Shown here one piece after another: positions 12,786 through 63,908 of a stretch of 64,000 bases of DNA (its first letter is position 1; the number at the start of each line of letters is the position of its first letter). The stretch comes from a virus (Duplodnaviria > Caudoviricetes), in the IMG/VR virus record IMGVR_UViG_3300021387_000357, positions 18,768 through 82,767 of that record; one strand, 5' to 3'. Both the position numbers and the translations under genes were made by a program. The notes below the pieces were generated by a model that saw only the letters and a program-made list of their open reading frames with translations, was not told the DNA's origin and did not search any database.

Positions 12786-12858
12786 GGCCCCGTCGACAAG
12801 CGGTCTAAGTCGTCGCCCTTTCACGGCGGAATCGTGGGTTCAAATCCCGCCGGGGTCA
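12786..12858 (+). tRNA. trnE: tRNA-Glu(TTC)
   Basis: GGCCCCG/CGGGGTC acceptor; loop CT-TTC-AC. Confidence 0.92.
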
Positions 12859-12990: not shown

Positions 12991-13063
12991 GGTTTCTTCG
13001 ACTAATTGGTAAGTCAATAGCCTATCACAGCTAATTTTGTGAGTTCGAATCTCTCAGAAACCA
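12991..13063 (+). tRNA. atypical tRNA with 8-nt anticodon loop CTATCACA (ATC if read at 34-36)
   Basis: GGTTTCT/AGAAACC acceptor, normal D and T arms; TAGC/GCTA anticodon stem. Confidence 0.6.
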
Positions 13064-13065
13064 AT

Positions 13066-13238: not shown

Positions 13239-13312
13239 GGCCCGGTAGTGGAGCGGTTTAACACAGCTGACTCTAAATCAGCGGAACCTGGGTTCGAACC
13301 CCAGTCGGGTCC
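13239..13312 (+). tRNA. amber suppressor tRNA, anticodon CTA
   Basis: GGCCCGG/TCGGGTC acceptor; GCTGA/TCAGC stem, loop CT-CTA-AA; T-arm CTGGG-TTCGAAC-CCCAG. Confidence 0.92.
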
Positions 13313-13545
13313 CCTCGATAAACATAATCTTTACGCAGATATGTATTATCAAAAAGTTTTTTACCTTTTGTTCTTTAAAAACGTAAAGGTGACTAAAGAA
13401 GTCAAAATGCACTTCTTCCCCTGCTTGGGGTGAAAAGTGGTTATTTAATGATTCCTGCCAGAAGACGAATCATTACCCTCCGATGCGTAAAAAGGATAGA
13501 GGGTGCGAATATCTATCTTGTATAGTGTATCGGAACTATACATTT

Positions 13546-21673: not shown

Positions 21674-21747
21674 TGGGGTATCGCCAAGTGGCTAAAGGCG
21701 GCGGACTTTGACTCCGCAATACGTTGGTTCGAATCCAACTACCCCAG
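21674..21747 (+). tRNA. trnQ: tRNA-Gln(TTG)
   Basis: U1:A72, G73; loop CT-TTG-AC. Confidence 0.92.
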
Positions 21748-21895: not shown

Positions 21896-21968
21896 TGGGC
21901 TATCGCCAAATGGTAAGGCAATGGATTCTGATTCCGTTATTGTGAAGGTTCGAATCCTTCTAGCCCAG
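21896..21968 (+). tRNA. trnQ: tRNA-Gln(CTG)
   Basis: U1:A72, G73; loop TT-CTG-AT. Confidence 0.9.
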
Positions 21969-24035: not shown

Positions 24036-24509
24036 ATGATATTGCTCTAGCATTATTCCTTATCTGATATTCTTATGTTTACTATTTTTTTAGCATTGTC
24101 AATTAAAAGTTTAATTTCTTTTTTTGATTGGGCTTATGTATATATAAAAAAAGCATTTAATATAAAATATTCTAAGATTACATAGAAATAGGAATTAGAA
24201 CGTCGTTTACAAAAAGGAAGCGAAGTCATGACAGAATTAAAACAAAATCAATAGGCAACGGATAAAATTTTAAAAGATTTATCTACAAAAATTGATATGT
24301 TAATTAATTCAGATCGAGATGACATAAAATCTTATATAACAAGATAGCATCATTATTTCTGTTATAAATTAGGATATATTGATGATTTTAGTCTTGATTG
24401 TATTGAAAAAAGATTTAAACATTATTCTGATGAAGGCGGCAATTCTTTTATAGAAAATTTTATGAAAGATTTAAGAGCTTTACCAATTCAATCGCCAAAA
24501 GAAGAATAA
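24036..24509 (+). CDS. TAG-recoded protein with N-terminal transmembrane segment
   Basis: GGAGG RBS; open through five TAG to TAA; first gene after late promoter 23952. Confidence 0.7.
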
Positions 24510-24542: not shown

Positions 24543-27500
24543 ATGGCAATTACTTCAAATTTATATCCGCCTTTAATTAATGATACGTTGCCAAGTTTTA
24601 TAAGAACAAAAACTTGTAGAATTTATTTTTCTCTTTCTAATTATAATTCCGCAACGGATATAAAAAATGTTCAAATTTCTTTAATAAATCAAAGAACAAA
24701 CCAATCTGCTTTTGATACAATAAAATATCCTTCTGGAATAAAAATAGCATCAATGATATATGATTCTAATATTCAAAATGACTTTAATTATTATGTAGAA
24801 ATACCAGTTAAAGATTTAGCTGAAGGCGTTTTTGGTTTAAATCAATTTTATAAAGTTCAATTGCGTTTTACATCAAAATCAGCATCAGATCCTCCAAGTT
24901 TAGGAAAAGGATTGGCGACTTGGTTATATAATAATATGCAATATTTTTCAGAATGGTCAAAAGTTTGTTTAATTAAAGGTATTGAACAACCAATTATCAC
25001 TATTAGAGGTTTTGATAATACAGAAGCTAACCAAGAAACAATTTTAACAAATGCTATTATAGACATAATTGGATAGATGCATTATAAAAATGGAGTAGCA
25101 GAAAAAGAATATTTAAAACATTATAACATTAAAATATATCAAGATAATGATTTAAATACGGTTCTTTTTAATAGCGGAGAAATTTATACTAATTAGTACA
25201 ATCCTAATGAAATAAATTATGAATTAGGATATGATTTATCTGATGGAGTTAATTATATTCTATCTTTTACATATACAACAAATAACTTATATACAGAAAC
25301 AATTAATTATAATTTTGCTATTATACAAAGAGGCATTGATAAATTAAATGCAACCATTACTGCAACACCAGATGAAGAAAATGGTAGAATAAAAATTAAT
25401 ATTGTTTCAACTGATAGTGAAAGATTTATTGGAAATATAACAATTAGAAGAACTTCTTCTAAATCAGATTTTCATAAATGGGAAGATATAAAAACTATTA
25501 CTTATGTAACAGGACAATAGTTAAATTATTCTTGGTATGATATTACCATTGAAAGTGGGGTTTGGTATAAATATTGCGCTCAACGCCGCAATGCACGGGG
25601 CGATAGGGGAGTAATTATTCAGATTGAGAATCCTGTTATGTGTATATTAAATGATATATTTTTAACAAGGAATGATAAACAATTAAAAATAAAATTTAAT
25701 CCCTCTTTAAATGAGATAAAATATAATGTTACTGAATCTCAACAAGTAACTATTGGTTCTCAATATCCATATATAAAAAGAAATGGAAATAATTATTTTA
25801 GAACATTTCCTATTGGTGGGTTAATTAGTTCTTTTATTGATACAACAAATTGGTATGACCCACATTTTTATGATGGAGAGTTTCATAATAATGAGAATGA
25901 AATAGGAGCTTTTACTTCTAAAAATGATATTTATGGAGAATCATAGAGTTTATATAATAATTATAATAATAAAAATAATATAACTTAGTATAATGATTAT
26001 ATTTATGAAAGAGAATTTAGAAAAAAAGTTTATGATTTTTTATATAAACATGATGTAAAACTTTTCCGCTCCACAACAGAAGGAAATATTTTAATTAAAC
26101 TAATGAATATAGATTTTCAACCTGTTGAATCTTTGGGACGAATGTTATATTCTTTTACTGCAACCGCAGTTGAAGTAGATGCAGCTACTATATAGAATTA
26201 TCAAAAATATGGAATTCAAAATGTTGGAACTTATGAAGATTATATTACATATGAACATGAAATATTAGGGCAAATTCAAGGCACTTATAATGAAAATAGT
26301 GGAAATATCTTAACCAGTATTATTAACTCAAAATATAGTAATCAAGCAAATAAAGGATTTTTAAATCAGGTAAATAACTTAAAATGGTTAAAATTAGAAA
26401 TTAGTTCAGATCCATATCTAATTATTGAAGAAAATGGATCACTTATTCAAGCAGATAAAAATTCTAATATAAACATTAATAATGCAACAGTTGGATATAT
26501 TGTAGAAATTAATGGTGTATAGATGATTATTCATCCGAAAATTATTAGAAGGACAGAAAATGCGGTTGATGGAACTGGACCTATTACAACTTCATATATA
26601 GGTTATTTTGAGTTAAAAGAGTCAAATACAAAAATTACATCTTTAAAATTTAAGTATCCGACAACGGTTTCTATTGATTATATTGCTAATCTTAAAGAAA
26701 TTGAAGATACTTCTCAATTAGCTAGTAGAATTTACTATTTACAAAAACCTGGTCAGATATATGGAAATTTTGAACCTAAAGACTCTATTTTCCGTAAAAT
26801 TTATAATAAATATCTATTAAATTATAAAAAATATTATCAGAGATTGATAAGTATAACTTAGATACAAGTAGAAGGCTAGCCGGGAACAGTCGTTTATGTA
26901 AAAGATTCTAAAGACACAGAAGCTTCACGTCATATCTTACAAAATGGATATTTACAATTAAAATAGGATGAAGTTTTTATTGAAGGAATTTATTTTTGCG
27001 GCAAGCATCTTACTCAATGTACTGATCCGCTATAGATTTCAACAGTAAATGGAATTCAAGATTTTATATTACAAGAAGGAATATATGATAATTTAAATGA
27101 CATTAGTAATCCTATTAATGGTGGAATATATCAAATAAAAACTTATGGCATATCTTCTTCTGTTTTAAAAATGCAAAATCAAAAAATATTATTAGTTCCA
27201 GAAAATTTAACAGAAAAAATTGAAATTACACCAGACAATTTTTATACATTATTACTTGAAACAATAGATGATGATAATATATTAAAATTTGTATATTATT
27301 ATGGTTGCTGGTATGTTTTAAATTAGGCTTTAAAGAAAAAAGTTGAATTATTAAAAAATGATATTCGACATATTAGAGATGATGAATATATTTAGACAAA
27401 TGAACGATATGATGATTTTTCTGAAATAAAAAATCCTATTAATAATGGAGTATATTGGATTTCTGATTATGCAGTAATGCACTCTATTTCTTTTGATAGA

Positions 27501-27713
27501 AATACGGGATTATTAACAATAGAAAAAGAAGACGCTATATTAAAAACAGACCAAAATTTTGCTTTAATTGTTCAAAAATTATATGAAGCATCAAAAAATA
27601 GATATATCTACTATCATAATAATTGGTATTTATTTACGCCAGACAATGATGTATTATGTCCAATAGATGGAATAGTTAATTATTGTTGTGAAATCGTGAA
27701 AGGAGTGTATTAA
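24543..27713 (+). CDS. large TAG-recoded putative tail/baseplate protein (about 1056 aa)
   Basis: Track ORFs 24543, 25638, 26523, 27477 share one frame and are separated only by TAG; ends TAA. Confidence 0.75.
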
Positions 27714-27715
27714 TT

Positions 27716-29749
27716 ATGACACATAACTTTCCATATTTAAAAGATATTAATTTTTTAAAATTATTTGATTAGACTAAATTAAAATAGCAATTTGTAAAAC
27801 TAATAGTTTTAAATTTTAAAGAAATGCCAATAACTGAAATTCAAGGAAAAGTAATAAGCGGGAATCTTAATTTAGACGGGTCTTCTGGAATGAGAAGGAC
27901 TGGTAATATTACTTTAGTAGCGGATGAATATTAGAATGATCTGACAGATACTAAACATTTATTATCAATTAATAAAAAAATTTAGTTATTAATTGGTTTT
28001 ACTAATACAACAAAATAGTATTCTGATTTTCCTATACTATGGTTTCCACAAGGAATTTTTGTTATTACTGCACCAAATATTTCACATGGAATGGGCGGGA
28101 TTAATATATCTTTAACATTACATGATAAAATGGCTTTGTTAAATGGAGAATGCGGCGGGACTCTTCCCGCCTCAGTCATTTTTCATTAGGTTGAAGATAT
28201 AGATGAAAAAGGATAGATTTATATACGACAGCCAACAATATATCAAATAATTCAAGAATTAGTTAATCATTTTGGCGGATAGCAGTTGGGGAAAATTATT
28301 ATTAGTGATATAGATAATAAAATTAAAAAAGTAATGAAATGGACTGGTTCTACTCCATTGTATTTATACCAGAGCCTAGATAAAAGTAATGGACAGCTTT
28401 TAAATCATTTTAGCACTAATTATAATGAAGCAAAAGAAGGTTCTGGTACTATACAAGAATTTTCATATGGAGAAGATGTTGGATATATTTTAACAGATTT
28501 TACATATCCTGGTGAATTAGTTAGTAATGCAGGAGACACTGTTGTTACAATATTAGATCAAATTAAAAATGTTCTTGGTAATTATGAATATTTTTATGAC
28601 ATAGATGGTAATTTTAGATTTCAAGAAATTAAAAATTATTTAAACACATCATATTCCACTTTTAAAATTAATGAAATAAATGAAAATAATTATTTAGTTG
28701 ATTATACAAGTGGAAAATCTGTATATACTTTTACTGATGCAAATATAATTACTGCATTTTCAAATTCTCCTCAATATCAGCAAATAAAAAATGATTTTAT
28801 TATTTGGGGAAAAAGGCAAACAACAGATGGCAAATAGGTTCCTATTAGGTATCATTTGGCCATTGATAAAAAACCGTAGATAGGAAATGAATATAAGGTA
28901 TTCTTTTTTACAGATCCGGATGATGGAATAGTAAAAGCAAAAAAACCTGTAGAATTTGATAATAGAGAAAGTTTCCCAACAAAAGGATAGGTTGGTAATT
29001 ATTATCTTGCGGCAGATACTGCAATTATTTATAAATGGGCGTCTGATGTTCATAAGTTTGAACAAACCTCCTACACTATTTAGACAATAAAAACAACCGA
29101 TTATAGAACTGAATTATATATGGCAGGAGTTGCTAGTTAGCCTTTTGGATTGAATAGTAATTATTATTATACTGAATTAAAAAATTAGTGGCCTAAATTA
29201 TATAATGTGAGGGGGTCAAATCCAGGTTTTTTTGAAGAAAATATCTTACAACCAAGTAATATTGATTTCTTTTTAGATTTTATTGATACTAATTCTGCTT
29301 TAGAAGAATTTAATATTAATAATATTGGAAGAAGAACTGTTGTTTTAAATGATGATAAAATTAATTGTATTTTTTAGCCAAATAATCCAGATATAGTGAT
29401 TATATAGGCTGGAACCTTAGATACAGATACAATTAGAGAAGAATGTGAAAATAGAAAACAAGAATATGTACAAGTTAGATCTTAGTTATATTCTCTTTTA
29501 ATGAATGGTGGTTTTTTAAGATCTGCTTATGAATAGATGAGAAAAGAATTATATCAATATACCAATTATAATTAGCAAGTTTCTTTAACTACCTTACCGA
29601 TATATTATCTTGAACCAAATGTAAGAATTACAATTCGAGATGTTGAATGTGGTATTTATGGAGATTATATGATAAAATCTTTTTCTATTCCATTAGATGT
29701 AAATGGAACAATGTCTATTTCTTGTACAAAAGCATTAGAAAGAATTTAA
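27716..29749 (+). CDS. TAG-recoded putative tail/baseplate hub protein (about 677 aa)
   Basis: One frame including ORF 28286; YEYFYDIDGNFRFQ motif typical of tail hub-like proteins; ends TAA. Confidence 0.7.
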
Positions 29750-30488: not shown

Positions 30489-32342
30489 ATGTATTCTTTT
30501 TATGGCGGACAACCAGGTAATTCTTTTATAATTATTACAACATATAGAAGTATTGCTGATATGGTTGCTAAATTTAAATTAGGATCAGAATATACCGCAG
30601 TTCATTTTGATTAGCATGTAATGATTAATACTGTTAATAAAAATGATCCAGATAATGGTAAAATATATAGACGCGGTTACGATTTTAATAATGATATGGG
30701 TGGAGCCGAATTTGTAGGTACTATAGTGGGTCCCGCAGGAAAAGCTCCAATGATAGAAATGACAACAATAGCAGATGTAAAAAGAAAACAATCATCTTAG
30801 GGTTATAGCTAGCGGCGTTCATCTGGAAGCTATTCTGTATCTGAAAACAATCTAGTTCCTGGTAAAAAAACTGATGGAACTTTTAATGACGCAATTACAT
30901 GGGAATGTTGCTCTATAAGAAATCAAAATAATGAAGATACTACTGCATATGTTGGTTTTACTTTTCCATATACTGTAATTGATGTAGAAGCAAAAACTGT
31001 ATAGCCATATTCCAGTGGTAGATATGCTGATATGAGCGGCGCCACCCGCATTGATGATTATAAACATCCCTTTTATGAGAAATGGCGATTAGATATTCCG
31101 AATGGAGTAAAAGGAGATAGTTTTAAAAATTTAAAAATTCAAGTTGCAGATTCTACTATTGAAGAATATTAGGGTCAAGCAGATGATATAAATAATAATC
31201 GTGAAGTTTTAGTATATGAATATTATAATTATGAAACTTTAAAGAGCGGAAATCCAAAAAAAATTTATTTAGGTGATTATAATAATATTGATAATATTTC
31301 TATGTCTTAGGATGGAACTATTACTATTGAATATAGTCATGATAATGATAAAATTTTTAATAAAACTATAAAATGGATTGATGATATCGCTGTTGCAAAT
31401 GATGGTACATTAACTATTTCTTGGAACAATGGAACAGCTGATACTGTTTTTAATAAAAAAATAAAATGGATAACATCAGTTGTAATGTCTTCTAGTGGAA
31501 ATGTTTCTGTAAATTATAATACCGATTAGAGTTTTATAATTGGACAAGTAAAATGGATTCATTCAATTGAATTAAACAGCGATGGTACTTTAGCAATTAA
31601 TTATAATACTGGAGAAAGACAACTTATTGAAGATCATAAAATTAAATGGATTGATAGTGCTCAATTAACAAATGGTCATGTGCTTATTTTTACATATAAT
31701 GATGCAACTTCAGATACTTTTAACTTAATTCTTCCAAATAATGTAACTATAAATACAGGAACATTGTAGGGAGAAGGAACTCAAAAAGTAAGAGTATCTT
31801 GGACTAATGGAGAATATGCAGAAATTGGTAATCCTATTAATTATATTATGTAGGCAGCTGTTAATGATAATGAGCATTTACTGGTTCGATATTCAGATCC
31901 TGTAAGAAGAGCTTTAAGTACAACAGTGAACTGGGATGGAAAATCAGGCTGGACAGATATTGGTAGTTTAAAAGTTCCATATATATATGGAGATCCTGCG
32001 GCAACTAATTTAAAATGGTCTGGTATGGGGATGATAACCGATTCTGAAACAGGACATTTAAGTGTTGTTTTTACAATGCCATTAACTCAATTATTAGATC
32101 AAAATATTACCGCGGTTAACATTACCAATGGTAGATTATATGTTGATTCTCAAAGTAGTATTCATGATTTAAATAATTTTGTAATGAATTCTACAAATAC
32201 CACAGTAACTAAAACATTAAGTGGTTTAGAATTTCAAGTTCAAACAGAATATGAAAACTCAGGTGGCGCTTCAATAGAAATTGCAACAATTTTTATAAAT
32301 CAATTAAGTTTATCATTCGTAAGACCTATAGGGGAGGGGTAA
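30489..32342 (+). CDS. TAG-recoded tail fibre-like protein with internal repeats (about 617 aa)
   Basis: MYSFYGG start, GGAGG RBS; read through all TAG into ORF 31926; repeated IKWI...DGTL units. Confidence 0.75.
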
Positions 32343-41408: not shown

Positions 41409-41446
41409 TATAAAAATTATTAACAATAAATTGATTAAGTTTGACC
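41409..41446 (-). promoter_or_regulatory. putative late promoter
   Basis: GGTCAA-24 nt-TTTTTATA upstream of the 41309 operon. Confidence 0.65.
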
Positions 41447-41514
41447 AAAAAATTTTCACCTTGACAACTATAAAAATTTTTGTTACAATTGGCGTAGAAA
41501 AGGAGATTAGAATT

Positions 41515-42003
41515 ATGAAAGTTTTATCATTAGATTTATCAACAAAATCAACTGGCTATTGTATTGGTTAGAATTAGATTATCATATCACATGGATGTGT
41601 TACCGCCAGTTCAAAAGATGTAATGAAACGTATTATAAAAATGAGAAATGAATTATCTAAAATAATTAAAGAAAATAAAATATAGAAAATTATTATGTAG
41701 TAGGTGCGGCCAGATTTTAATTCACATACTGGTAAAATATTAATGTGGTTGCAAGGTATAGTAACAATGGCCGCATATGAAATTAATTCAACAATAGAAT
41801 GGGATTTTATTGGGGCTTCAACATGGCGGGCAGCCCTTAAAATTAAACAAGGCCGCGGTATAAAAAGAGATGATCTCAAACCGCAAGATATATAGTATGT
41901 AAAAAATAAATACAATATTATAGTAAATGATGATGAGGCTGATGCTATATGTATATTTGATGCTTATAATGAAAAATTTAATAATGAGATAAATTGGGAA
42001 TAA
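41515..42003 (+). CDS. RuvC-like Holliday junction resolvase (6 in-frame TAG)
   Basis: VLSLDLSTKSTGY, I*KIIM**VRP, NDDEADA RNase H-fold motifs; AAGGAG RBS; ends TAA. Confidence 0.85.
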
Positions 42004-42037: not shown

Positions 42038-42212
42038 CTTCTTTATCCTATTTTCGTACTTGAGCATTTATATAATTAATATAGCTTTTTTCAACATCAG
42101 AATAAATATCTTTTATAATATAATATATAACAATTGGAGGCAATTCTTTAGAGTTTAATAATATAGTGATCTATTTTTTTAACTTCTCTGCTGTCAATGA
42201 AATCGTTTCCAT
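42018..42212 (-). CDS. small TAG-recoded protein at end of tail operon
   Basis: METISLTAEKLKK*I...DKEEK*G*N; overlaps end of radical SAM gene; ends TAA. Confidence 0.6.
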
Positions 42213-43563
42213 TTACAATCCTCTTTTCTTCTCTTTTCTTAAATAATTGATAAAAATCTCTTAATCCTTTTTCTATTTCAAATTTTCTAAAATCAATACT
42301 GTATTCATCGCACCAAATATCAATTTCACAATTTTTTAACGTATTACATAATGGTTTATAAAAACAACTTTTACACTCTTCTTTTAATGGTGTTTTCTCT
42401 GCCCATTTGTTTATTTCATCTAAATCATAAGGAGTTTTATTAATATTTAAAGTATAATATCCATCATATGGATGATGCTCACATGTACTAATATATCCAT
42501 TTGGTGCAACAACAATACTAACACCGTCATCCGCCATGCAATGAGTTCTTTTTATCCCTCTTTGTAAATGGATTTCTTTATTTAAATAATTAATCATTTC
42601 TTTATAATTTTCAAAAATTTTTTTACGATCTTCCTTTTTATTATTAGCTGAATTAAAATTAATTAAATCATAAATAGGAGAAGAATAAATTGAAAAATTA
42701 ATATTTTTACCAAATTTATTTATTAAAAAATCAGCTAACTCTTTTTGCTAATTTACATTATTATAATCCAAATTCATTCTTATAACAACTTTTATATGAT
42801 TTTTTAATAAGAAACTAATATTATTAACAATAGTTAAAAAAGGATTTTCTTCCTTTTTTATATTTTTATAGTTTTTAATTTTATTATATGCTTCTTCATA
42901 TCCATCTATTGTAATTTGAAAAGTTTTTACATTCCATTTTTTTAAATCCTATTTAGAAAGATTTTTTATTAAATATCCATTAGATAAGAAAATAGATTGA
43001 TATTTAATATTATTTTTATTTAACTGATCACACATATAATTAATAATTTTAGTATTTAAAAGAGGTTCTCCACCAAACCACCTTAGTTTTAAAGGAGACT
43101 ATATTCTACCGCCTTTTCCACTTATAAAAAATTTTATTAAATCATCTATGACTTCAGTTGTCATAAACTAAGTTTTTATACCTTTTTCATAACAATAGTA
43201 ACATTGAGCATTACATGCGGTTGTGGTTAATAAAGTACATGTTTTTATTCTATTAAATCTTTTTTTTGGGAAACGTCGTTTTAACTCCTGTATTGATAAA
43301 TAATATAAAGAATAATCATCTATCTAAATTGGAATTTTATACCAAGACTCTACTAATATTTTCTATATTTCTGAATTAAACTAATTATACTATATATTTG
43401 TTAATACTATAATTTCACCAGTCCAAAGATTATATATAATATATTCATCATCTTGTTCTATTGTATAAATATATTTTAACCATTTATATTTTTTAGTTGA
43501 ATCATATTGTTGTTTTAAAATCGTCCTATCCATTGTTGTATAACTATTTTTTATAACTTTCAT
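42148..43563 (-). CDS. radical SAM/SPASM-domain enzyme (TAG-recoded, about 471 aa)
   Basis: CNAQCYYC, WFGGEP, SNGYL, QITIDG and SPASM-like CKSCFYKPLC; GGAG RBS. Confidence 0.85.
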
Positions 43564-43579: not shown

Positions 43580-46500
43580 TTACCAACCAGGTCCATAACA
43601 TTCAGTATCACAACTGCATTCCCATTCATCACACTCTGATGGTGGAGTATAATCACATCCGCCACACTCCCATTGACCACACTATTCATCACAGTCCTAC
43701 TAACATTGGCCACCACATTCTGTATCTATATCAGAAATAGCTTCCCAAATATTTTTAAATTCTTGAGCAATAGAACCGCCATCATTGTCATAATTATTAA
43801 AACCACTTCTATTAATATTAATTAAATCCATAGAATAAAGTGCACGTCCAAACACCTGTCCGCTACCATTCACAACAAAATCATAATCAAACGGATCATC
43901 ACTTTCTCCCTATCCATCACTACTAAACCACATCCACCATTCATCTGAATCATTTAATTTTGCAGAAATTGCCATAGAAGGATCTTCACTTTCATTAGCT
44001 AAAATATTTCTATGATAATTATCACTAATAACAAAATCACCTAAATTAATTTCTTTACTAGTAACATTAAAAAAGTTTTGACTACCAATGTTAATAGAAA
44101 AATTATCGCCATCATATCTTAAATAATTTCTTGATGATGATGTAAAATCAAATTTACCATCTGCTCCTAAAAAAGCACCTGCATTACTACTTGCAAAAGC
44201 ATTTTTATTAACAGTATGTAAAGAATTTGCCTCAATAGTCCATCCGCCTATTGTACCTGCAGTAGATTTTATACTACCATCAGAATAGACTTTAAATAAA
44301 TTATTAATATTAAATCTTAAAGATTTTCCGTCCTATGTATGTTTTTCATTTGCATATAAAATACTTTTATTGTCATTGCTTGAGAATGAATCAGTATTAA
44401 TTTTCCATCCAGCTATTGTTGAAGTTCCACCAGGAATCAACTTAATTTGTCCCTAACCTGCTCTACCAAAGGTGGCATTGCCAGTATCTGCATCTAAATA
44501 AATACTAGTAGCACCTTTTGAAAAACCAAGTAAACCATTATATGTAGTTGCATTACCGCTATTTAATTTTACAGCACCCATTACAATCCCTGTAAATCTA
44601 TTGTTGCTGTCTTTAACTCCAGCCCCCATTTGAGGAGCTAAAATATATCCACCTTCTTCGTTAATTTGAACACTATTACCATCCCAAGCATTTAAACTGG
44701 CTAAACCATAACGGTTCAATAAAAAATGAATTGGAACACTTAATCTACCAATAATAACTCCTTTTTGTGTATATACACAAGTAACCGCATTATTAATACA
44801 CTATCCATCATATTTAGAATTAGGTTTATATTTCCATTGATTTTTATTTAATTCTTTTCTATATGCTTCACTTGATAACAAAATTAATAAATTAGAATTA
44901 ATTAAATCACCAGCCTTATTTCTTTTTACATTCCCGCATGATCCTGGCGTATAACTAATAGAATGACTTCCATTAACTAAAGAAACATCTTCCCAAACAT
45001 TATTAATTTTTTCTTTACAGATAAATTCAAAAGGATGGGAATTATCATACTGCGGTGACGTACCATCTGGCGTATATATAACATATCTAAAACCAGTATA
45101 ATCTGCTAAAAATACTCTAAAATTACTATTATATGTCCATGCTGTTGTAACAGGAATGGTTCCATAATATGTTTTATTTTCATATGTAATACTACATTTA
45201 ATAGTATTAGCTAAAGGCGTATTTAATGCACTAGCTAAATGATCACCTAGATATTGAATATTACCATTTGATGCATTGGTAACTCTAAAAGCAGATTGAT
45301 CGCTTACTGTATTATTATATTTATTAGCAAGAATTTCCCAATGAACAAGAGCAGGTTTAGTTACTCCATCTATTGCAGCGGTTGACGCATTAAAACCCTC
45401 CCAAACCAATTCTCCACTGTGCCATAACTGTGCTTTAAATAATTGATAACCGCTAGATAATCCAATTTTTGTTTCATCTGCTGTTGAATTTAATCCATAA
45501 TTTAAAATATAATCACTTCCAGCTTTTGTAATCATAGGAAAAGCAGGTGGATCACTCATTCTAGTATTAGGAATTAATTTAACCACATACTAAGTCCCAT
45601 TTGTACCAGGCTCGCCCTGTTTAGCAAATGTAAACTAAGTTTCCGCAGTTAAATTCATTCCTTTATAATCAACTGTTAATTTAATTTGATTAATTTGTTT
45701 TTTAATGTCATATCTTTGAGCAATATCATAAACTAAATTAATAATATTATCATAATATTTATAGGTTTGTGTTGGATCTGTACCAGCGCTTTCTCCATTA
45801 TCCGCAGAATCAACTAATAAAGTATTCTTTATAGGAATTTGCCAACGAATTTTACAGTCTTTAGAATTTTTAATAATATTATTATCAATTGCGTTACCTA
45901 AATTATCATATATAGTAAAACTTAAAGCTTGAATCTACTGTTGAATATCAAGACTTCTATTATTAGGAGCTACTCCATATTCATTATATTGAAAAACCGC
46001 AGATCCATTATTTATAACAAGAGAATAAAGATCTTCTCCATTCAATGAATTGGTTAATGTAATTGCGGCAGTTCCTAAATAAATATTTTGATTATTATAA
46101 ACGGAACATTTAAATATAGCTAAGTTAGTGATATTACTTATTTGAACATCATATATTTTATTACCATCAACTCTCTGAATAAAATAAAATGCTTTAACTG
46201 CTTCTTCATATTTAGTTAAATTACTTGCTTCAGCATTGGCAAATTTTCTACCTACCGCAATATCATTTTGTAAATTAGTTAAATTATTATAAGCTGTGCT
46301 ATATGCACTATTTTGTTCTGTTGTTTCTAATAAATTCTAAAAAATACCAGTATCAGATTCAACTCCCCAATAATAATGGTATCCAGTTGGTTCTCCGCTA
46401 TTTACTCTACAAGTTAAAGTGGGGTGTCCTATATCATAATAAAATTTAGTACCCTAACTAGAGTCAATTGTTATCTAAGGTATATTTGCTGCTAAATTTT

Positions 46501-47728
46501 TAATATTTATTATTTTACTAACAACTGTACCATCATATAAAATAGAAACTTTAAAACGATTATCTCTAGCTGTTGCTTCAGAAATTTTAACAGTATAAGT
46601 ATCTTTACCTGGTACCCAAGTATAAATCGGGTCATTTTCTGCATCTCCCTCGACCGCAAGATTACTATCATTTAAACATTTCCACCCTCTACCAAGATAT
46701 TTATTATAATATTGATTTCTTGGTGTAATTCCAACATTTTCACTTCCCCAATAGAAAGAGATGTTTTGGGCGGCAGATGCTAATTTACCCTTTATTCTAA
46801 CTTGCGCAGTTATTGTTTTATAACTATTCTCACTTGATTGGTCTGTAAAAAAAGTCCCTTGAGGTGTATAAAATGATATTGCTACACCATTTATCTCATC
46901 TTCTGCCATCCTAATCGCACCATTTAACTATAAGGCAGAAATTTCTATATCACCGCTTGATAATCTTGTTCCAGTGGTTATTTGAGTTGCTCCTGGAAAA
47001 TCTTGATTGAAAATCTAAATTGATTCAACTCTAATAAAATTAGCTCCATCAATATCAAAAATCTAATACTGTCTGGTATCATATATTAATCTATATGGAT
47101 TATCAATCATGTTATCTTCATCTATAGTATATGATCTAATTACTTCTTTATTAGATGTATTATCTAAAAAACGAAGATTAAATGTAATTCCATAATGCCC
47201 TCTATATTGCTTTTCTGGAGCAATATTTGTTTTAAATATTCCTCCTACAATTAAAGAAGAAGATTGTTTAATATATTCATTTAATGCAGTATTATCTAAT
47301 TTAATATCACTAGTTTTATTATATTGATATATTACATATTTATAGTCTTTATTTTTAGTATCTAAATAAAAAATATTATTAAAAGTTATACAATTGTTAC
47401 CAATAGTATCATATGCTTCATCTCCTTCAGCCTGTGAAATATAATTAATTCCTAATTTTTTTGTAGTTCCAAGAATTGTTTTTTCTTTTCCCATATCCCC
47501 GCCAGGTACCAAAATATAAACAAATGCTCCTTTAGTATATGTTATATCCGCAGTACCAGCATATGCATATATTGTTGCATCTTGATAACGACATCTATAC
47601 TTACCTATTGTCGCATCCTAACATGATAAAATTTGAGCTTGAATTGTTCTATCATATCCAGCTTTTTCAACTGTGCTTTTAGATAACAATTCAATAGCAT
47701 CTAAAACTTTCTAACTCACATTACTCAT
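43580..47728 (-). CDS. large TAG-recoded tail protein with Cys-rich C-terminal peptide (about 1382 aa)
   Basis: Frame joins ORFs 47063, 46475, 44801, 44453; GGWTI/AGWKI fibre-type repeats; ends TAA. Confidence 0.72.
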
Positions 47729-48077: not shown

Positions 48078-51000
48078 TTATCTACGCATTGCTCTTTGCG
48101 CTGCTAAATTAACTAAATCATTAAATGCCTATTCAATTTCTCGTTTGCTATTAACACTCGGGAAAGAAGCATCAATACGAACATTTTGTTCCAAATTCTG
48201 TCCACCGCCAAATGCATTATACAATCCTGATTTTATATCACTTACTTTTGTAAAGATATTCCCGCCAACAGAATCCATTACAGAACGTAAAATACTTACT
48301 GTACTTAAAAGATTTGATGTATCTGTAGCATTTAAAACTAATTCTTTTTTATGAAGAATTGCGGGTATTCCTTCATTTCCGCTCCAGTTTCCAGTATACC
48401 CGCCAGTGTCATAATGTCCATACTTCTTTTTATAATCTTCTTTTAAAGCCTATCTAACACTTTCTGCAGAGTCAGCACTTAAGCCTGTAGTCATCTTTTC
48501 AAAACTATCTGCGTCAACTCTAACAACAGAATAGCTACCATCAGACTATTGAAGAGTATTCCATGAACCTGTAGAATATGTTTTACTTAAAGTTGGCATC
48601 CTATCTTGTAACGGAGTATCTTTTGTATACCATCCTTTTGGGGCAGTTTCTGGCATTACACCAGGTCCGATATCGTTCTAAATCTATCCATCATCAAGAT
48701 AGTCATCTTCAAAATCATCAATTTCACCTCTAGTATCTTGAAGAGTTTCATGAATTGCGGATGCTGCTCGCTTAGCTGCTTCATAAACGTCATTATACTA
48801 TTCTTTTAAATTCTTAGCTGCTGTTTGTAAACTCTCAATAGCGGTTAACTCTTTATCCATTCTTTCTATTAAATCATCGTTTTTTTCAACTAAATCGGCG
48901 AATGAATCAGCTAAATCATCGACGCCCTGCTTAACATCATCAAGATCAATACCAGCAACTTGTGCCATCTCATCAAGTTCATCTTTATAATCTTCAGTAG
49001 CTTCTGTAATATTTTCAAAAGCTTCTTGACAAGTTGGAATAAAGCCACCCTATCCGGCAACTTTATCTGACATTTTCTGAATACCACTCTACCACGCGGG
49101 AACTAGATCTCCCATTAAGATATTCTTTTCATCATCTGCCATCTGTTGATAATTTTCAACATCTGTTCCATATATAGCCGCAATATCCATAAAAGCAGAA
49201 TTCATTAAGTTAGTTCTAATAACCATATTTTCTGCTATTTTATCATTAATATATTGACCATACTGCTCCCTTAATAAAGCAAGATTAGCTACTCTTTCTT
49301 CTTCTGATAAAGAAACATCTGTAACAATTTCTTTATATTGTTCTTGGAAATCCTTCCAAGCACTTAACATATCACCTAGATTAGATTGATATCTATCTTT
49401 ATCGAAATTATAAAGATCATTTTGTGCACTTGCAAGGTTTTGTTCAGCTTCGGCTATATTACCCTCATCCGCAACATATTCATATGAATAGTTACCTTGA
49501 GAATCTCTTCTTAACCTCATTGATGTTTTACTAGCTTGAGCATCTTCTAAAGCTATTCTTGCTTGTTCAATTTGTAATAATTTTTCAGCTCTTTCGACAT
49601 CATATTGAGTTAATTTATCTTTAGCTCTTAAATTTTGAAGTTGCTAATCCATGACTTTTTTCAAAGCACGCTGACTCTTTAAACTTTGAGTATCATTAAT
49701 AGCATTTTTAAATTTATTTTCTAACTATTGAACCGCAAAAGCTGAATTAATAGTATCTAAATACTCTTCAGCATTTTTATTCATTAAATCCCATTCAGTT
49801 GATAAATAATCAGTTCCTAATCCACCGCTAACTTTCTTATCTAATTCATCAAAAATCTTTTCAATAGCATTAAGATATTTATCTTTAAGAGTTTCAGCAG
49901 ATTTTTCAATGGTAGAATTTAAATTATTAAGAGTTTCTTTATAATTTTCTTCAAATTTCTTTGCAGATTCAGTATCTCCGCGAGCAACCGCCTCATCCCA
50001 TTCTTGTTTCCAGAAATCTCTTTGTTGTCTTAATGAATCAAGCTGTCTTAAATTATTATTTTGCAATGTCGTATAATATTTATTCATTGCATCATAATTT
50101 CTATCTCCATAGAGTAAAGACAAAAGATCTATATCATGTTCAATCAATTCACCAATTAATCCATAGTCTTCAATTTGCTTATCAAACTGATCCATAATAT
50201 CATCAATAGTGCTAAAGTAAGCTTCATCAATACTATCAATTAAATCTTCAACATCTTCCATTTGTTGCATTAATTCATCAAGATCACTCTGAAGATCCTA
50301 CATAGCTTGTTTTTTGTTGTTGCCATATATAGATGATTCTCCGCCACTATTAATTTCATCTAACTCATCTTGAGTTGCAAGTAATTGATTGGTTAAGGCT
50401 TCTAAGGTTCCCATTTGACCATTAATGTCAAAATAAGAAAGAACATCTTGATAATTTTGCGCGGCGTCCTTTAATAATTTATCAAATTCAGACTCTTTTA
50501 AAAGGTTAGAATGATTGAGGACATTTCTGCGGAAGTTATTCCAATCTTTTTCTGCTTTGCCCATATCAAGACGAATTTCAATATCAGTTCTAAATTTTTT
50601 AATATTATTTTCAAATTGCTATTGTCTTTTTGCTTCTCTCTAATCTTCATTATCCTACATTTCATCCATGAGTTTATCATAATTATCCATGCTCTTATGA
50701 AGATTTTTCATTTTTTCCTATTCATGTTTAATTTTTTTATCTAACTCAGAAAGTTGTTGATTTAGCTCTTTCTTACGAGTTTCATCTGTAGTCTAATTAT
50801 ATTCTTTAATTAATTCATTATATTGTTTAATTAATTCATTAATTTCAGTCTACTTTATTTTAAGTAAATCCATATAATTAGCAATTTTACCATATTCATC
50901 AAAAACAACACCTAAATTTTTTAACTATTCTTGTTGTTGTGTTTGGTCTTGTTTTTGTAGCTAATATTTTTCTTCTAATTTTCCAATTTGTTTATCAAGA

Positions 51001-54000
51001 ATTCCATTTTGCTAATTAAGATTATTAATTAAATCTTTACCATATAGTTTATCTTGTTTCTTTTTAGTATTTTCTAATTGTCTATTTAAATCACCAAGTT
51101 CAATATTAATATCATGATAAAGGTCTATCTATTCTTTTAATTCTTCTTTAGTCTATTTTTGAGAGGTATCTGGTTTAGATTCTTTTCCACCTCCACCTCC
51201 TCCGCCACTTTTCCCACCGCCAGGAGAAATAATCCCTCCATTATCATTGGTAGAATTTATTGGTTTATATGAAATTTTTTTAGGAATTCTTATTGTTCCA
51301 CCTTGAAAATTTAAGGCGCTATTTCCAGCTTCTGCTAAAGCATTTATCCTTCCAGTTCCAGACATTGCATTAATGCCTGCGGGTGCTTTTGTTGCTTGAA
51401 GACCTGTAATAGAAACTTCTTGCCATTCAATCTAAGACTCAACACCAATTGCACCTAAAATTTTATTACATTGTTTTTGTGTTAATCCAGCATCTCTTAT
51501 TAATTTATTTAACTGAGCAACAAATTTAGCATCTTGTAAATAAGCGTGCGTTTGTATATCTTCTGGAGATAATTGTTGAATTAAATTATTTAATTTATTT
51601 AAAACATCAACATTAATACTTTGTTCATTTAATTCTGCTTCAACTTGCACTTTTTCAATTTCTTGTTCAGCAAGTTTTTTTCTTAACCGCTAAACCGCTC
51701 CCTAAGTTCCCTAAGCGATTTCTTTAACATTTTCTAAATAATCAGTTGCATTTTCATCAGTTAAATCTATATGAATACCTGGAATATTGTTTATAATACC
51801 AATAAGTTCAGACATTGCATTCATAAATTTAAGAGATCCAGGATCAGCATTTAAATCATCTTTTAAATTTTTATAACTTTTTTGTAATTTCTATAAAGAA
51901 TCTATTAATTTTAAATCATTTAAAGCCATCTGTTGAAGAGCTTCATCAGATAAATTGAATTCCTATCCTAATTCATTTACTCCATCTACTGCACTATTAG
52001 TTTTTTCGCGAATTTTTTCTAATTGTTTTACATAATTTTGATATGTTGCACCAGAAACCTTTAAGGTTTTTAATTCTTCTCTAATAGCTTTATCTAATAA
52101 AGCATGATAGTGAACTTGATCTTGTATAGCTCCAGTTTTATAAAGTTCATTAACTCGTTCAACTGTTGTAGCATATTTTTCAATATCAGCAATCTATTCT
52201 TCAGTAAAAGCTCTATTTTCTTTTTTAGCTTGTTCAGTCTTTAATTCAATAGTTTTCTACAGAACCTTATCTAATGCTTGTTGATATTCTTCAGAGCCAG
52301 CTAGCCAAGTATCTTGTAATAGTTTTGCGGATTCTATTAATTCTTTATCATTATTTTGTGTAGCAGATTCAATTACCGCATTTAAATTTTCTTGATAAGC
52401 CTAATTTTCTTTTTTAGATAAATTTTTACCAGATTGAAGTTTTTCACCACTTTGAGAAATAACAGATAAAGAAGCAATATTATTTTGTTGCTATTGAATT
52501 ACTTGTTGGTCGGCAATTACTTTTTGAAGCACTTTCTACCAATTATCTGTAGTTAAAGTAACTCCTTCAAGACCTTTTTGAATATTCTACCAACTTACTC
52601 CCTGAGTATCAATAGCAAGAAGATCATCTAACAAACCTTCTTGTGGTTTACCTATTTTTAATTCAATATCTTTTCTAACCTCATCAATTGAATCTATAAA
52701 AGGATCACTAATACTTCTTACTAATCCATCTGTATTAAAATTCTGTCCGTCTAAATTTAAACCAAAATAATAATTAAATAATTGTGATAAAGTATCTTGA
52801 CTAACATTTTGTAAATTACTGTTTTTAATTATTGCATTTAAAGATTCTGCTAAATAATTAGCTCTCTATTGTCCAGTTTCAAAAGCAATATCTTTGAATT
52901 TTTCATTTTCTGTTTTTAATTGAGAAAATAATTCTGGAGAAGTTTTATAAATTGTTAATAACTATGCTTCAAAATCTTTTCCTTGAGATAGATAGGTAGA
53001 ATATTGTTCTGCCATCCCCTATTTATGTCCCTATGCCCAAGCCGCAATTAATCCTTCTGCGTCTGTTATTCCAGCTTGTTTTAACTTTTCATAATTAGAA
53101 CTATCTCCACTTCCATACATTAATTGTTGAAGCAACATCGTGGGATCTGCATTTGAAGCCTAACTAGCAGTCTACTGCGCAGCAACTAATCTTCCTTTTG
53201 CTATCTACCACGTACTTATATAAGTATCAATTGATTCTAATAAATTTTCTTTATAATTATTAGCTAATGTGTTTAAAGTTGTATCTCGACTACGAGCAAA
53301 AATATTTAAAATTTCTTCATATCTTTGTCTTTCATCTTCAGATAAATCTTTAATAGTTTTGCTACTTAGTTCTCTAAATTCATTAGCATAGTATGTCATT
53401 GCAGTATTATTTCTTTGAATGGCAGCTTGAATAATAGAATTAGTTATATCTGGATTTAAATCAGCAATTGAAGAATTAAAATTAGTATTAATATTTTCTT
53501 GTTGTATATCAACTAATTCTCTTGCATTTACAGATTGTACTCTTCTACCTTCAACAGCATTAGTAAAATCATTACTATTAACAAAACCTTTTAATTCTAA
53601 TTCATTCTTTTTCTATAATTTTGCTATTGTTTCATCAAGAGCATTATTATTTGCTAAAATTGCTTCGCCTTGAGCATTATATGCAGCAACAATTTCTGGA
53701 TTAACACCAGCTATTTTATCTTTAATCTAATTCCATCTGTCTTTTTCTTTATCTGAAAGATTATTTATGTTTTGATCATATTGTCCTGCAGCATTAGATA
53801 AAGAATTATACTCATCTCTTAAAGATTCTAAATCTTGAATAGTATTTTTTGTAGATGAAACATTATTTGCTAATTCAGCTTGTTTATCATTAAAAGTAGA
53901 TAAAGCTTGCTCAGCCTATTTAGCTGACATAGTAAGCTTATCGTATGCTGCAACCAATCCAATTACAGCGGCAGCTACTAATATGTATGGATTAAGTAAT

Positions 54001-56732
54001 AAAGTTTTATTTAATAATTGAATTTTTATTGCTGCTTCTCCAGAAGCCACTTTTACTAATGAAATAGCTCCAGCGTGTGCAATTTCAGTTGTTGTTGCTG
54101 CCATAGCTGCAACATATTCTTCTGTTGTTACAACTTTCATTAAACCTAATGATGTAGTGGCTTTTACAAACCCATTTGCAAGCATTGGAAGAACAAAAGC
54201 CGCTCCAGTAATTATTTTAATAAATTTCTATCCAGCAGATAAATCAGAGTTTTTCCAAATACTACCAAGATTTTGCACCTGTTGAATGGCAGAACCCATT
54301 TGAGCAATACCGCCAGCCGCTTTAGCCCAATTTTCAATTTGAGCAGCTCTTTCTATTCTTTCTTGTCCAGTAATAAAAGAAACAGTAAGCTGTTCTAATT
54401 TTTGTTGCTTCTATTGTAAGTTATTTATAAAAGCTGGATCACTCATTACCTACAACAAATCTTTATATCTTTTATTAATTTTATCTCCAGCAGCTTTTGT
54501 GGCATCAACTAATTTTTGAAGGAAAGATTTAAATATTTGTTCAGCAACTTCTGGTTTTTCAGAATTAATTTTTTGTATTACTTTTGTCCATTCTGTGCCT
54601 AAAGATTTAACTTTATTTTGAATTTCTGGCATTCCATCAAAATAACCACCGCTTTCAAATTCTGTAAGTTTATCTATAAAAACTTGAACTTCATCAGTGG
54701 CTTGATTAAATGCTTCTTCAAAATTTTGAGTAGCATCTTTTCCATTTTTCATTACTGAAAAGGCTTTATTTAAATTGGCTTCAAGCTATTTACCAACATT
54801 TTTAGATTGTTCTGCTATTTCTTTTAATCCAGTAATTTCTTCATCTATAATTTCTTGAACTTGATCTGCCTAATTTGAACCTAAAAATTCATTTAATGGT
54901 GTTGTTACAGCAAAATCAGTATTAAGTAAATCTTCTAATGGTTTCTTTTTTTCTTCTAAACTAGCAATTTCATTACCTAATTGAGTAATATCATTAAGTA
55001 ATTTTTGCATACCAGAAAATTGTTCTGGTGTCATTAATCTTGCTAATTCAAGTAATTGTTCTCTATTTTCTAATAATTTTTTACTGGTATCATCTAACTT
55101 AGGAATTCCTTGCCAGTCTTTTGTTGCTTCAAGAGCTTGCCTGAATTGTTCAGCATTATCTCGACCAATTTCAAAATTAGTAATAGTAGTATTAATTCCT
55201 CTAGCAATTTGCTCACTAAATACAGTCAAGCCAACAGCACCAAGCATTTTTAGTACTCCAACTCCGCCACCAAGACTATCAACCAAATTAGCAGTTAAAT
55301 TTGCGGCAACTGTTAATCCATCAGCTATACTATTAATACTATCAGTGTCAGATAGACTGTCATATATATTTTCAACAGCTGCTTTTAAAGTTTGTAAGTG
55401 TGCGGCGGTTGACTCCATATAAATATCTTGTTGCTCTTGTAAAGTACCTGCCGCATTTTGAGCAGTATTTAATGCTTCATTATATTTCTCAAAATTATCA
55501 AATAAAGCAATCAAATTAGAATACTGTCTTTGACCAGCCATTGTTTGTGCAAGAGAAATCTGTTGCTCTCTAGTCAAATCTTGCCAACGACCGCCAATTT
55601 CTTCCATAACTTCACCCATATCACGAAGATTACCAGCAGCATCAAGAACATTAAATCCTAATTCTGCCATTTTACCAGAATAATTACCAAGAGTAACACC
55701 ATCTTCATCAATACCAGCTTTAATATCAGAAATACGAGCATATACGGTTCTTAATGCAGTACCAACTGATTCAGGAGCTTGACGAGTAACAGATATAATA
55801 GTTGATAATTGTGCAGCTAATTGATCTTCACCAACTCCCATCGCGGCAGCCGCACTTGCAACCTTACTCATACCAGTACTTAGTTCCTCAAGGTCTGATG
55901 CTGTAGTAGCAGCAACCGCAGCAAGCCTATCAATATAAAGCTATGCTTCTTCCGCACTAACTTTATAACCATTCCAAACAGCTGTTAATTCCTCTGAAAC
56001 ATCTGAAGTAGATTGCCCAGTAACGTTGGCTGTCATTAGAGTAATTTTAGCTCTTTCCTATATTTCTTTATCAGATAAACCCTGTTGTGCATAAATTAAT
56101 GCCGCATTTGTATAGTCTGTTGTAGTTTTACCTAAACTTTGGGCAGCTTCATTTGCTTTAATCGCAAAATTACCCATTTCTTCAGCAGACTTACCTGTAA
56201 CTATTCTAATGTTATTTAATGATGTATCTAATGATTTTGTATAACCCCATGCTTGTTCAACCGCCCTAGACATATTATTAACTGCACCAGAAGCTAAATT
56301 CCATTTAATAGTATTGGTAAGAGTGGTTGCCATCTTATCTAATAAGCCATGAGTCTCTTTTAATTGAATATTTGTGCTTAATACTTGAGAAGATAAACTT
56401 CTAAATGCATTTTCTCCACTAGTCCCCGCAGATTTAAAAGCTGTATAAATTTTCTATATAGATGTTTGAGAATTAATTAAAGATTTATTAAAAGTCTATA
56501 TATTTACAGTATTTAATTTAGCATTAAAAGCAGTCTTTAAAGCTTCTTCTACATTCTGAGCTTCTCTTTTTATACTATTAAGCATCGTTGTAGCAGATGC
56601 TGCATCAGTATGATTAATCTTCATTACATCACTAATTTTCATTTTCTGAATTTCTTGTAATGAAGCTTTTAATTTATTTAAATCGCCAGATTTTACATCA
56701 AAACCAACCTGGTATCTTATTTCATTTGCCAT
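48078..56732 (-). CDS. tail tape measure protein (TAG-recoded, about 2884 aa)
   Basis: Eleven track ORFs from 56496 to 49089 share one frame; TMP-like core (ALIYAQQG, APESVGTALRTVYARI, AGQRQYSNLIALFDN); ends TAA at 48078; not every codon was checked. Confidence 0.85.
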
Positions 56733-62483: not shown

Positions 62484-63908
62484 ATGTTAAAAGGAATTGA
62501 TATTTCTTATCATCAAGGGACAGTAGATTTTAAAAAAATAAAAGCCAGTAATGAAATGGATTTTATTGTTCTTAGATAGGGCTATAGAAAAGCTATTGAT
62601 AATAACTTTATTGAATATACAAAAGAATGCCAAAATAATAATATTCCTATTATGGTATATCATTTTATTTATACCAATAATGCTACAATTAAAGAAAATG
62701 CAGAATCAACTTTTAATAATATAAAAAAAGCTGGTTTAAACCCTGAAGAAATTTGGATTGCGGCGGATCTTGAATATGACACTTGGAAGAAAAATAAAGA
62801 AATTTGTACCAAAGAAAAATGTACTGCATATACAAAAGAATATTTAGATGAATTAAAAGCACTTGGATGTAAAAAATTATTTATTTATACCAATACTGAC
62901 TATTATAAAAATTATTATGATTGGAATCAATTATCTGATTATCCAATTTGGCTTGCTGACTATGCTGGAGCTCCTGATTATCCATGCGCCATGCAACAAT
63001 ACACTTCAACAGGTAGGATTAGCGGCATTAATGGCTATGTAGATATGAATTATTTATTTGATGAAACAATGTTAGATAATAACTTAAAAGAATAGACAAA
63101 TAGCCATGACAATAATAATGTGATTACCGCAGATGATGCATTAAATCTTTTTAGAACATGGATAGGACTATCTCGTTCTAAAGGAACTCATAAAATAATT
63201 ATTGATACTTATAATAATTATACTCCAAGAGCAAGAGGATATAAGGTTACATATTCTGACGCCTATTGTGATACAACAATTAGTGCAATTTTTATTAAAT
63301 TAAATGCAGTTGATTTAATAGGTGGGACAGAGTGCGGCGTAGAAAATCATGTTGCATTATTTAAAAAAGCTGGTATTTGGGAAGAAGATGGAACAATAAC
63401 ACCAGAAAAAGGTGATTTAATTATATATAACTGGGATGATAATACTCAACCAAATAATGGTTATTCAGACCATATAGGAATGGTTGAATCAGTTTCTGAT
63501 AATAATATTATTGTTCTTGAAGGTAATATGAATGGTGGAGTTGTTGGTCGTAGAACTATTCCTATTGGTTGGGGTTATATTCGTGGATATGCTAAACCCA
63601 AATATGGAATTAAAAAAGAGAAAAAAGAAACATCTACAATTGGGAATATTTCAACAACAGTCAAAGAACCTAAAACCAATACCACAATAAAAATTGATTA
63701 TGCCGAATCTTTTAATAAAAAAATTGCAAAAACTTATACAACGACAGCAAATTTAAGATTGCGGTCAGGCGCCAATTTATCAAAACCAATTATTACAGTT
63801 ATGCCATATGGTAGTAAAGTTACTTGTTATGGATATTATACTGAAAATTGGTATTATGTTACATATGGAAAATACACTGGATTTTGTTCTAAACAATATT
63901 TAAAATAA
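62484..63908 (+). CDS. modular endolysin GH25 muramidase + CHAP + SH3b (2 in-frame TAG)
   Basis: GIDISYHQG, DLEY, WLADY; AYCDTTIS and DHIGMV (CHAP Cys/His); NLRLRSG SH3; TAG at 62577 and 63093. Confidence 0.85.

Follow-up and report, generated by a model that had tools for sequence, protein, structure and literature searches.

A probable UAG = glutamate code in large bacterial viruses and the amber suppressor tRNA that accompanies it

Amber recoding in phages and the genome under study

According to Borges et al. (preprint 10.1101/2021.08.26.457843), the only changes of the genetic code observed in phages were the reading of TAG as glutamine and of TGA as tryptophan, and the former, code 15, is the sole amber reassignment of phages reported in the literature that we searched. 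The phages using this code, i.e. the crAss-like, Lak, Agate and phAss-1 groups (Borges et al., preprint cited above; Peters et al., PMC9523058; Babkin et al., PMC10607447), carry a tRNA with a CUA anticodon in an array of tRNA genes and no dedicated synthetase, and their TAG codons are concentrated in late structural and lysis genes, the early genes being largely TAG-free. Table 15 is also assumed in the phAss-1, jumbo-phage and Pharokka-gv studies, and in a survey of 180 phage suppressor tRNAs the predicted isotypes were Gln, Trp, Ile and Tyr but not Glu (PMC10879173). Neither for phages nor for bacteria did full-text literature searches bring up a case of TAG = Glu. UAG is read as glutamate in the nuclear code of peritrich ciliates (NCBI table 30), which is, however, a eukaryotic code in which UAA has been reassigned, too. 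That one anticodon change can create a UAG reader is exemplified by the E. coli su7 tRNA-Trp(CUA), whose amino acid is set by the synthetase tolerating the CUA anticodon, in this case GlnRS, by which it is captured to insert Gln (cited in PMC9976931).

The phage described here shares with the code 15 phages the CUA tRNA in a tRNA array, the missing synthetase and the distribution of TAG, and it resembles the Agate and phAss-1 groups in genome size and sample type, but its TAG codons align with glutamate and its CUA tRNA has G1:C72, G2.U71 and U11:A24 instead of their Gln- or Trp-type chassis. The IMG/VR record is linear, 82,767 bp long and estimated to be 62% complete, and the window, i.e. the whole stretch of 64,000 nucleotides that was analysed and to which coordinates refer unless stated otherwise, comprises its bases 18768-82767; the G + C content is 31%. 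The record appears to represent a large phage with Firmicutes-type bacteria as candidate hosts, and a host prediction based on the endolysin led to four MAG contigs of mixed taxonomy, some of them probably mis-binned phage, and to no firm host.

Reading TAG as sense extends the longest stop-free frame from 500 aa (table 11) to 2886 aa and places about 150 in-frame TAG codons within ORFs of at least 150 aa of the record, mainly in late genes. On the plus strand these include a late gene with five TAG codons (24036..24509), the genes for a 1056-aa virion-type protein with 13 (24543..27713), a 677-aa tail protein with 19 (27716..29749), a 617-aa protein with nine (30489..32342), a RuvC-like nuclease with six (41431..42003) and an endolysin with choline-binding-type repeats and two TAG codons (62484..63908), and on the minus strand those for a radical SAM protein with eight (42148..43563), a 1382-aa protein with 18 (43580..47728) and a 2884-aa protein with 53 (48078..56732). 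TAG is thus concentrated in the large virion-type, radical SAM, RuvC-like nuclease and endolysin genes, and many early-type genes are free of it. Unlike in table 30, TAA is kept as a stop codon: with TAG read as sense, 51 of the 66 ORFs of at least 100 aa end on TAA and 15 on TGA, although a TAG still ending some early genes would not show in gene calls made in this way. In two small early-type ORFs (3768-4124, and 12630-12926 in genome coordinates) a TAG lies one or two codons ahead of the terminal TAA or TGA; there it may still serve as a stop, with a back-up stop behind it, before the suppressor is made.

The meaning of UAG in the late genes

The tail protein encoded at 27716-29749 has 62 relatives in IMG/VR (L001-L062), and within this one phage family, with genomes of about 130-150 kb, four codes are found, i.e. 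the standard code, TAG = Glu, TAG = Gln and TGA = Trp. In a tail-protein tree obtained by a quick search only, each code forms its own clade or clades, and the window falls into an 18-member clade (100% SH-aLRT) consisting entirely of TAG = Glu members and separate from a standard-code clade with 11 members; in the same quick tree, L032 and L036 form another TAG = Glu lineage.

In a MAFFT alignment of 41 tail protein sequences, the 19 TAG columns of the window were compared with 12 standard-code homologs. These columns contain E 101 times, followed by K (27), N (19), T (19) and Q (11), several of them being Glu in nearly all sequences; Glu is the majority residue at 14 of the 19 sites, and the BLOSUM sum amounts to 496 for E vs 228 for Q. 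As controls within the same alignment, L028, L029 and L037 return Q (462 vs 206 for L028) and the TGA lineages return W, and since both Gln and Trp are recovered in this way, the method is able to discriminate between these cases. The tail gene itself contains 35 GAA, 19 TAG and no GAG codons, compared with 8-14 GAG codons in the standard-code homologs, and TAG appears to be a codon-for-codon substitute for GAG here. Genome-wide, the demand for glutamate codons also adds up, with 69 GAA, GAG and TAG codons per 1000 in TAG-rich genes vs 67 GAA and GAG codons per 1000 in TAG-free genes, and Gln codons occur in normal numbers where TAG = Glu but are depleted in genomes with TAG = Gln.

Amongst the other TAG-rich genes, the majority residue in standard-code homologs of the late gene at 24036..24509 is E at four sites and K at one, E is the commonest aligned residue at six of the 13 sites of the 1056-aa protein, and the nine sites of the 617-aa protein are divided between E (4), S (2), D (2) and T (1). 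Homologs cover 21 sites of the 2884-aa protein, with E at seven, D at four and any other residue at two or fewer, and the sites of the 1382-aa protein are poorly conserved and have a mixed profile. On the genome scale, comparing all genes of the window with the ORFs of standard-code loci yielded 101 TAG sites in 15 genes, with homologs from one phage family only and sites that are not fully independent. Their profile (E.30, D.10, K.08, S.075, Q.067) is like that of the GAA/GAG sites of the window (E.41, D.12) and unlike that of its CAA/CAG sites (Q.35, E.10). Based on empirical substitution rows, E reaches a log-likelihood of −253.6 over the 101 sites, compared with −285.9 (Q), −298.8 (K) and −301.7 (D), and where at least five homologs agree to at least 80%, the residue is E at eight sites, D at one and Q at none.

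The RuvC-like nuclease has the motif KIIM-TAG-TAG-VRP where its standard-code homologs have KIILEEVRP, the first TAG corresponding to Glu in seven of seven of them. Direct PDB searches with this protein or with the radical SAM protein gave nothing useful, and a profile of homologs was needed to obtain a full-length match to E. coli RuvC (1HJR), which is weak (E 0.05) and places the first TAG on the catalytic E66, with D7, D138 and D141 of E. coli RuvC likewise in register. Judged from these sequence comparisons, TAG is a sense codon in this phage, and the meaning under selection is glutamate. The suggestion of the earlier note that the CUA tRNA delivers Glu and not Gln is therefore supported by the residues aligned with TAG, by the Gln and Trp controls and by the TAG at a catalytic Glu of the RuvC-like protein.

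It might be argued that the tRNA pool is charged with a mixture of Glu and Gln, or of Glu and Lys, which the late proteins tolerate. In a mixture fit, the share of Gln could be as high as about 0.34, or that of Lys as high as about 0.30, with the maximum likelihood of the Glu/Gln mixture at 0.14 Gln (range 0-0.34); moreover, the anticodon arm of the suppressor is similar to that of tRNA-Lys(CUU), and amber suppressors are often mischarged (PMC9976931). However, pure Glu is not rejected (−253.6 vs −252.3 at the optimum), and TAG occupies Glu positions that are invariant or catalytic, at which mixed insertion would come at a cost, and such ambiguous decoding is improbable.

The amber suppressor tRNA and its relatives

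According to ARAGORN, the window contains 21 tRNA genes, all on the plus strand between 11450 and 22045, including a tRNA with a CTA anticodon called at 13239-13314, whose label 'Pyl' derives from the anticodon alone. The amber suppressor gene (13239..13312, plus strand) also matches the Rfam tRNA model RF00005 with 57.7 bits (gathering score 29) and can be parsed into a cloverleaf that is backed by covariation (see below), confirming a well-formed tRNA with this anticodon, and it is the only amber-reading tRNA in the whole record. The acceptor stem GGCCCGG/TCGGGTC gives G1:C72 and G2.U71, and U8, A9 and A26 are present. In the D arm, GTGG-AGCGGTTTA-ACAC, the pairs G10:C25, U11:A24 and G12:C23 are followed by a G13.A22 mismatch. 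The anticodon arm GCTGA-CTCTAAA-TCAGC has the 7-nt loop CUCUAAA with U33 and the anticodon CUA at positions 34-36, the variable region GGAAC comprises 5 nt, and the T arm reads CTGGG-TTCGAAC-CCCAG. The discriminator C73 is followed by CCT, and the 3′ CCA is not fully encoded.

A near neighbour in the array, tRNA-Glu(UUC) (12786..12858, plus strand; ARAGORN and Rfam), was used for comparison. It has the acceptor GGCCCCG/CGGGGTC, the D loop AGCGGTCTA, a 4-nt variable region, A73 and A11:U24; parsing thus confirms the near-match of the two acceptors, as well as the differences in the variable region (5 vs 4 nt) and the discriminator (C73 vs A73), that the earlier note had pointed out, along with every other feature listed there. 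Its further statement that U11:A24 is as in bacterial tRNA-Glu applies to other phage tRNA-Glu genes and to the Clostridia tRNA-Glu L178 but not to this local one. As contrast cases, tRNA-Gln(UUG) (21674..21747) and tRNA-Gln(CUG) (21896..21968; both plus strand, ARAGORN and Rfam) have U1:A72, G73 and a GCCA/AGGC D stem.

Two further observations concern the array as such. A tRNA-like gene at 12990-13064 (Rfam 46.8 bits) has an 8-nt anticodon loop, CTATCACA, in which ARAGORN reads the four bases ATCA, and could be an Asp(AUC)-type, an opal-type (UCA) or a quadruplet reader; a tRNA-Asp(GUC) is present in relatives and absent from the window. The array ends with a TAG-free gene for a Ro60/TROVE-like 'RNA-binding protein' (22291-23778; phrog_850, E 8e-121), whose 180 relatives in IMG/VR usually adjoin tRNA arrays and suppressor tRNAs.

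Via this conserved gene, and from four genomes that are 99-100% complete, the tRNA arrays of relatives were obtained, and nine distinct CUA tRNAs come from relatives whose own TAG sites point to Glu. Over the nine, 98.3% of the cells are paired and changes on both sides have occurred in 14 of 20 pairs, which was reached in none of 500 shuffles. All nine have the loop CUCUAAA and a variable region of 4 nt, as in L079, L077, L081 and L091, or 5 nt; U11:A24 is found in 9/9 and G2.U71 in 7/9, and the 1:72 pair is G:C in three, C:G in five, G.U in one and U:A in none. Among about 520 non-redundant tRNAs of the loci, the combination of G2.U71 and U11:A24 occurs in 11 of 27 tRNA-Glu, 4 of 11 tRNA-Asp and 1 of 64 tRNA-Lys genes but in none of 50 tRNA-Gln genes and in no other isotype. 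By itself, G2.U71 is present in 14 of the 27 tRNA-Glu genes of the family, and its tRNA-Gln genes begin and end the acceptor stem with U1:A72 or A1:U72 in 44 of 50 cases.

A different architecture is seen in the TAG = Gln sister clade, where in three of three genomes examined the CUA tRNAs have U1:A72, A73 and a long extra arm, and from clade to clade of the family the chassis of the suppressor goes along with the meaning inferred for TAG. The long extra arm is found in the TAG = Gln suppressors L143:8965-9063, L146:2666-2764, L097:3072, L098:6279, L103:785, L113:2832, L126:1115 and L141:3153, with L144:11481-11571 as an exception, and is missing from TAG = Glu suppressors; ARAGORN miscalls two of these long-armed tRNAs as having a 4-base 'taaa' anticodon. 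The loop of the extra arm, YTCTGAR, is a copy of the tRNA-Gln(CUG) anticodon loop and may act as a second, Gln-type 'anticodon' that gives the identity while the CUA arm decodes.

These comparisons also bear on the assumption that the phage uses ordinary code 15, its tRNA being charged with Gln either through mischarging by GlnRS or by an ND-GluRS together with GatCAB, as for TAG in crAss-like and Lak phages. Besides the precedent of code 15 as such, a GlnRS-type domain in many Clostridia and the acceptance of amber suppressors by GlnRS (PMC9976931) would fit this assumption. However, the likelihood of the TAG sites is much lower for Q than for E, Gln is not the residue at any strongly conserved TAG site, there is no depletion of Gln codons, and for the sister clade the same pipeline does arrive at Gln. 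In addition, the suppressor has G1:C72, C73, G2.U71, C3:G70 and A38 where the Gln-type features would be U1:A72, G73, G2:C71, G3:C70 and U38. An ordinary code 15 is therefore very unlikely, and the earlier characterisation of the tRNA as not Gln-like is upheld, since it lacks U1:A72, G73 and C11:G24 and differs from both the tRNA-Gln genes of the family and the suppressors of the TAG = Gln clade.

How far glutamate identity extends over the rest of the molecule is a separate question. In common with Firmicute-type tRNA-Glu, the suppressor has G1:C72, G2.U71, the C3-C5/G68-G70 run, U11:A24, the 13.22 mismatch, the D loop AGYGGTTTA and A37, but it deviates by the CUA anticodon, A38, the 5-nt variable region, C73 and G12:C23 in place of C12:G23, and neither its anticodon stem nor its T arm is Glu-like. 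The tRNA-Glu identity set of E. coli consists of G1:C72, U2:A71, U11:A24, the U13:G22..A46 triple, the lack of nucleotide 47, and U34, U35, C36 and A37 (PMC9976931). Of these, G1:C72 and U11:A24 are present in the suppressor, and U2:A71 is replaced by G2.U71, a replacement common to the local tRNA-Glu and the Clostridia tRNA-Glu L178. The triple is not found (G13.A22), nor is nucleotide 47 lacking in the 5-nt region GGAAC, and the anticodon loop has C34, as in CUC isoacceptors, U35, A36 and A37, with A36 being required to read UAG.

A naive-Bayes isotype classifier based on canonical positions (leave-one-out accuracy 86.5%) assigns the suppressors of L019, L022, L074, L077, L079, L081 and L091 to Glu. 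The L079 suppressor combines a textbook Firmicute tRNA-Glu D arm, GTCA-AGCGGTTTA-AGAC, and a 4-nt variable region with the anticodon arm of the tRNA in the window, which is itself 98% similar to the suppressor of L093, 85% to that of L022 and 78% to that of L079. The less diverged members of the suppressor family are plain tRNA-Glu bodies with a CUA anticodon. For the window copy, assigning the whole body to tRNA-Glu was tried and rejected: the classifier ranks Asp before Lys and Thr, and neither MAFFT identities nor identities at canonical positions group it with tRNA-Glu. Its overall similarity is 0.65 to Glu and 0.67-0.68 to Lys, Trp and Asp. A BLAST search against 301 Clostridia genomes gave 27 local matches of the anticodon and T arms to tRNA-Lys(CUU), while the only full-length match was to a tRNA-Glu(CUC) (74%). 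The 'Glu-like body' of the earlier note can accordingly be retained for the acceptor and the D arm, with the signature in 11/27 tRNA-Glu vs 0/50 tRNA-Gln genes, but not for the whole molecule. The window copy is justifiably regarded as a diverged member that is Glu-like in its acceptor and D arm and by descent, its other parts not being diagnostic.

That this tRNA takes aspartate or lysine, which both the classifier ranking of the window copy and the 27 tRNA-Lys(CUU) matches might suggest, is contradicted by the protein data (−301.7 for D and −298.8 for K vs −253.6 for E) and by the absence of G73 and a GUC anticodon as required by AspRS and of A73 and U36 as required by LysRS (identity table, PMC9976931), G73 being present in all tRNA-Asp genes of the family that were compared; a code with TAG = Asp or Lys is extremely improbable. 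Suppressor tRNAs are missing from some recoded phages (Borges et al., preprint 10.1101/2021.08.26.457843), but that the gene should be a relic or decoy, with TAG decoded otherwise, e.g. by a host suppressor, is just as hard to maintain given the conserved cloverleaf, in which 14 of 20 pairs show compensation over nine variants, the agreement between chassis and TAG meaning, and the exactly one CUA tRNA, beside tRNA-Glu/tRNA-Met and in conserved gene order, in each of the four 99-100% complete relatives.

A strict pattern for suppressors of this type recovered only 10 IMG/VR contigs, all apparently from one phage group. When the tRNA region was compared by megablast with 50,697 phage records, tRNA-Met fragments were the only matches, and a more distant blastn search with the suppressor gave short, uninformative matches to mycobacteriophage tRNAs annotated as Gln or Glu. 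One complete TAG = Glu relative encodes, in addition, a tRNA with a TTA anticodon (L151:4723-4797, identical to L022:2395 and L089:6561), which would read UAA, the main stop codon of the family.

Charging of the suppressor and the evolution of the code

The absence of a synthetase or release factor gene from the window, on which the earlier note had remarked, extends to the full record and to the four 99-100% complete relatives, in which neither the class Ic core of GluRS/GlnRS (PF00749) nor the RF-1 domain (PF00472) was found. As no phage GluRS or GlnRS was found, the suppressor would have to be charged by a host enzyme, and the delivery of Glu would be explained most simply by GluRS. In E. 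coli, U11:A24 is a major and G1:C72 a weak determinant for GluRS (PMC9976931). The host GluRS might thus recognise the suppressor by U11:A24, G2.U71 and G1:C72 together with U35 and A37; it would tolerate C34, as in tRNA-Glu(CUC), and A36, so that only base 36 would have to be newly tolerated. The A36-A37-A38 loop would suit the decoding of a codon starting with U, and the 3′ end would be completed by the CCA enzyme of the host. Against charging with Glu it has to be noted that the suppressor lacks three determinants of the E. coli type, i.e. C36, the deletion of nucleotide 47 and U2:A71, and that C73 is unusual.

In turn, it is proposed that a strong pair at 1:72, together with a discriminator other than G, keeps the suppressor off the routes leading to Gln. 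Amidotransferases depend on U1:A72, and G1:C72 is an antideterminant (PMC9976931), so that the suppressor would be no substrate for them. While the chemistry of the argument previously built on GatCAB is thus sound, it may not name the relevant filter: 132 of 200 sampled Clostridia genomes (G008-G312) contain ORFs of about 560 aa with an anticodon-binding domain of the GlnRS type (PF03950), and the indirect GatCAB route can therefore not be assumed for the host, which may use GlnRS instead. E. coli GlnRS does mischarge amber suppressors (work cited in PMC9976931). The same acceptor features would, however, also count as missing determinants against GlnRS.

Taken together, the gene at 13239-13312 is very probably the phage's own amber suppressor tRNA, turning UAG from a stop into a glutamate codon in the TAG-rich late genes for virion, lysis and nuclease proteins. 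Like su7 it would read UAG through a change of the anticodon, but whereas su7 was captured by GlnRS, the outcome selected here seems to be that Glu is retained. It is also probable, if slightly less so, that this represents a natural UAG = glutamate code of bacterial viruses which is based on an amber suppressor derived from tRNA-Glu, and which arose inside one family of phages of about 130-150 kb that also holds standard, UAG = Gln and UGA = Trp lineages, the meaning of UAG following the chassis of the suppressor (a strong 1:72 pair with U11:A24 for Glu, U1:A72 with an extra arm for Gln).

The pipelines and papers that we searched treat TAG-recoded phages as table 15 (Gln). Applied to this clade, table 15 would introduce the wrong residue at about 1.5% of late-protein positions, catalytic and invariant glutamates included, and this would affect structure prediction, proteomic searches and functional assignments. 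A suppressor that is charged by GluRS and escapes the Gln pathways would also be of practical interest for the engineering of suppressor tRNAs. Finally, code changes in phages would not be confined to the synthetases thought to be 'hijackable', i.e. GlnRS and TrpRS, and the closely related genomes in which UAG stands for Glu, for Gln or for stop would form a natural series that permits direct tests of how a captured codon acquires its meaning and by which rules.
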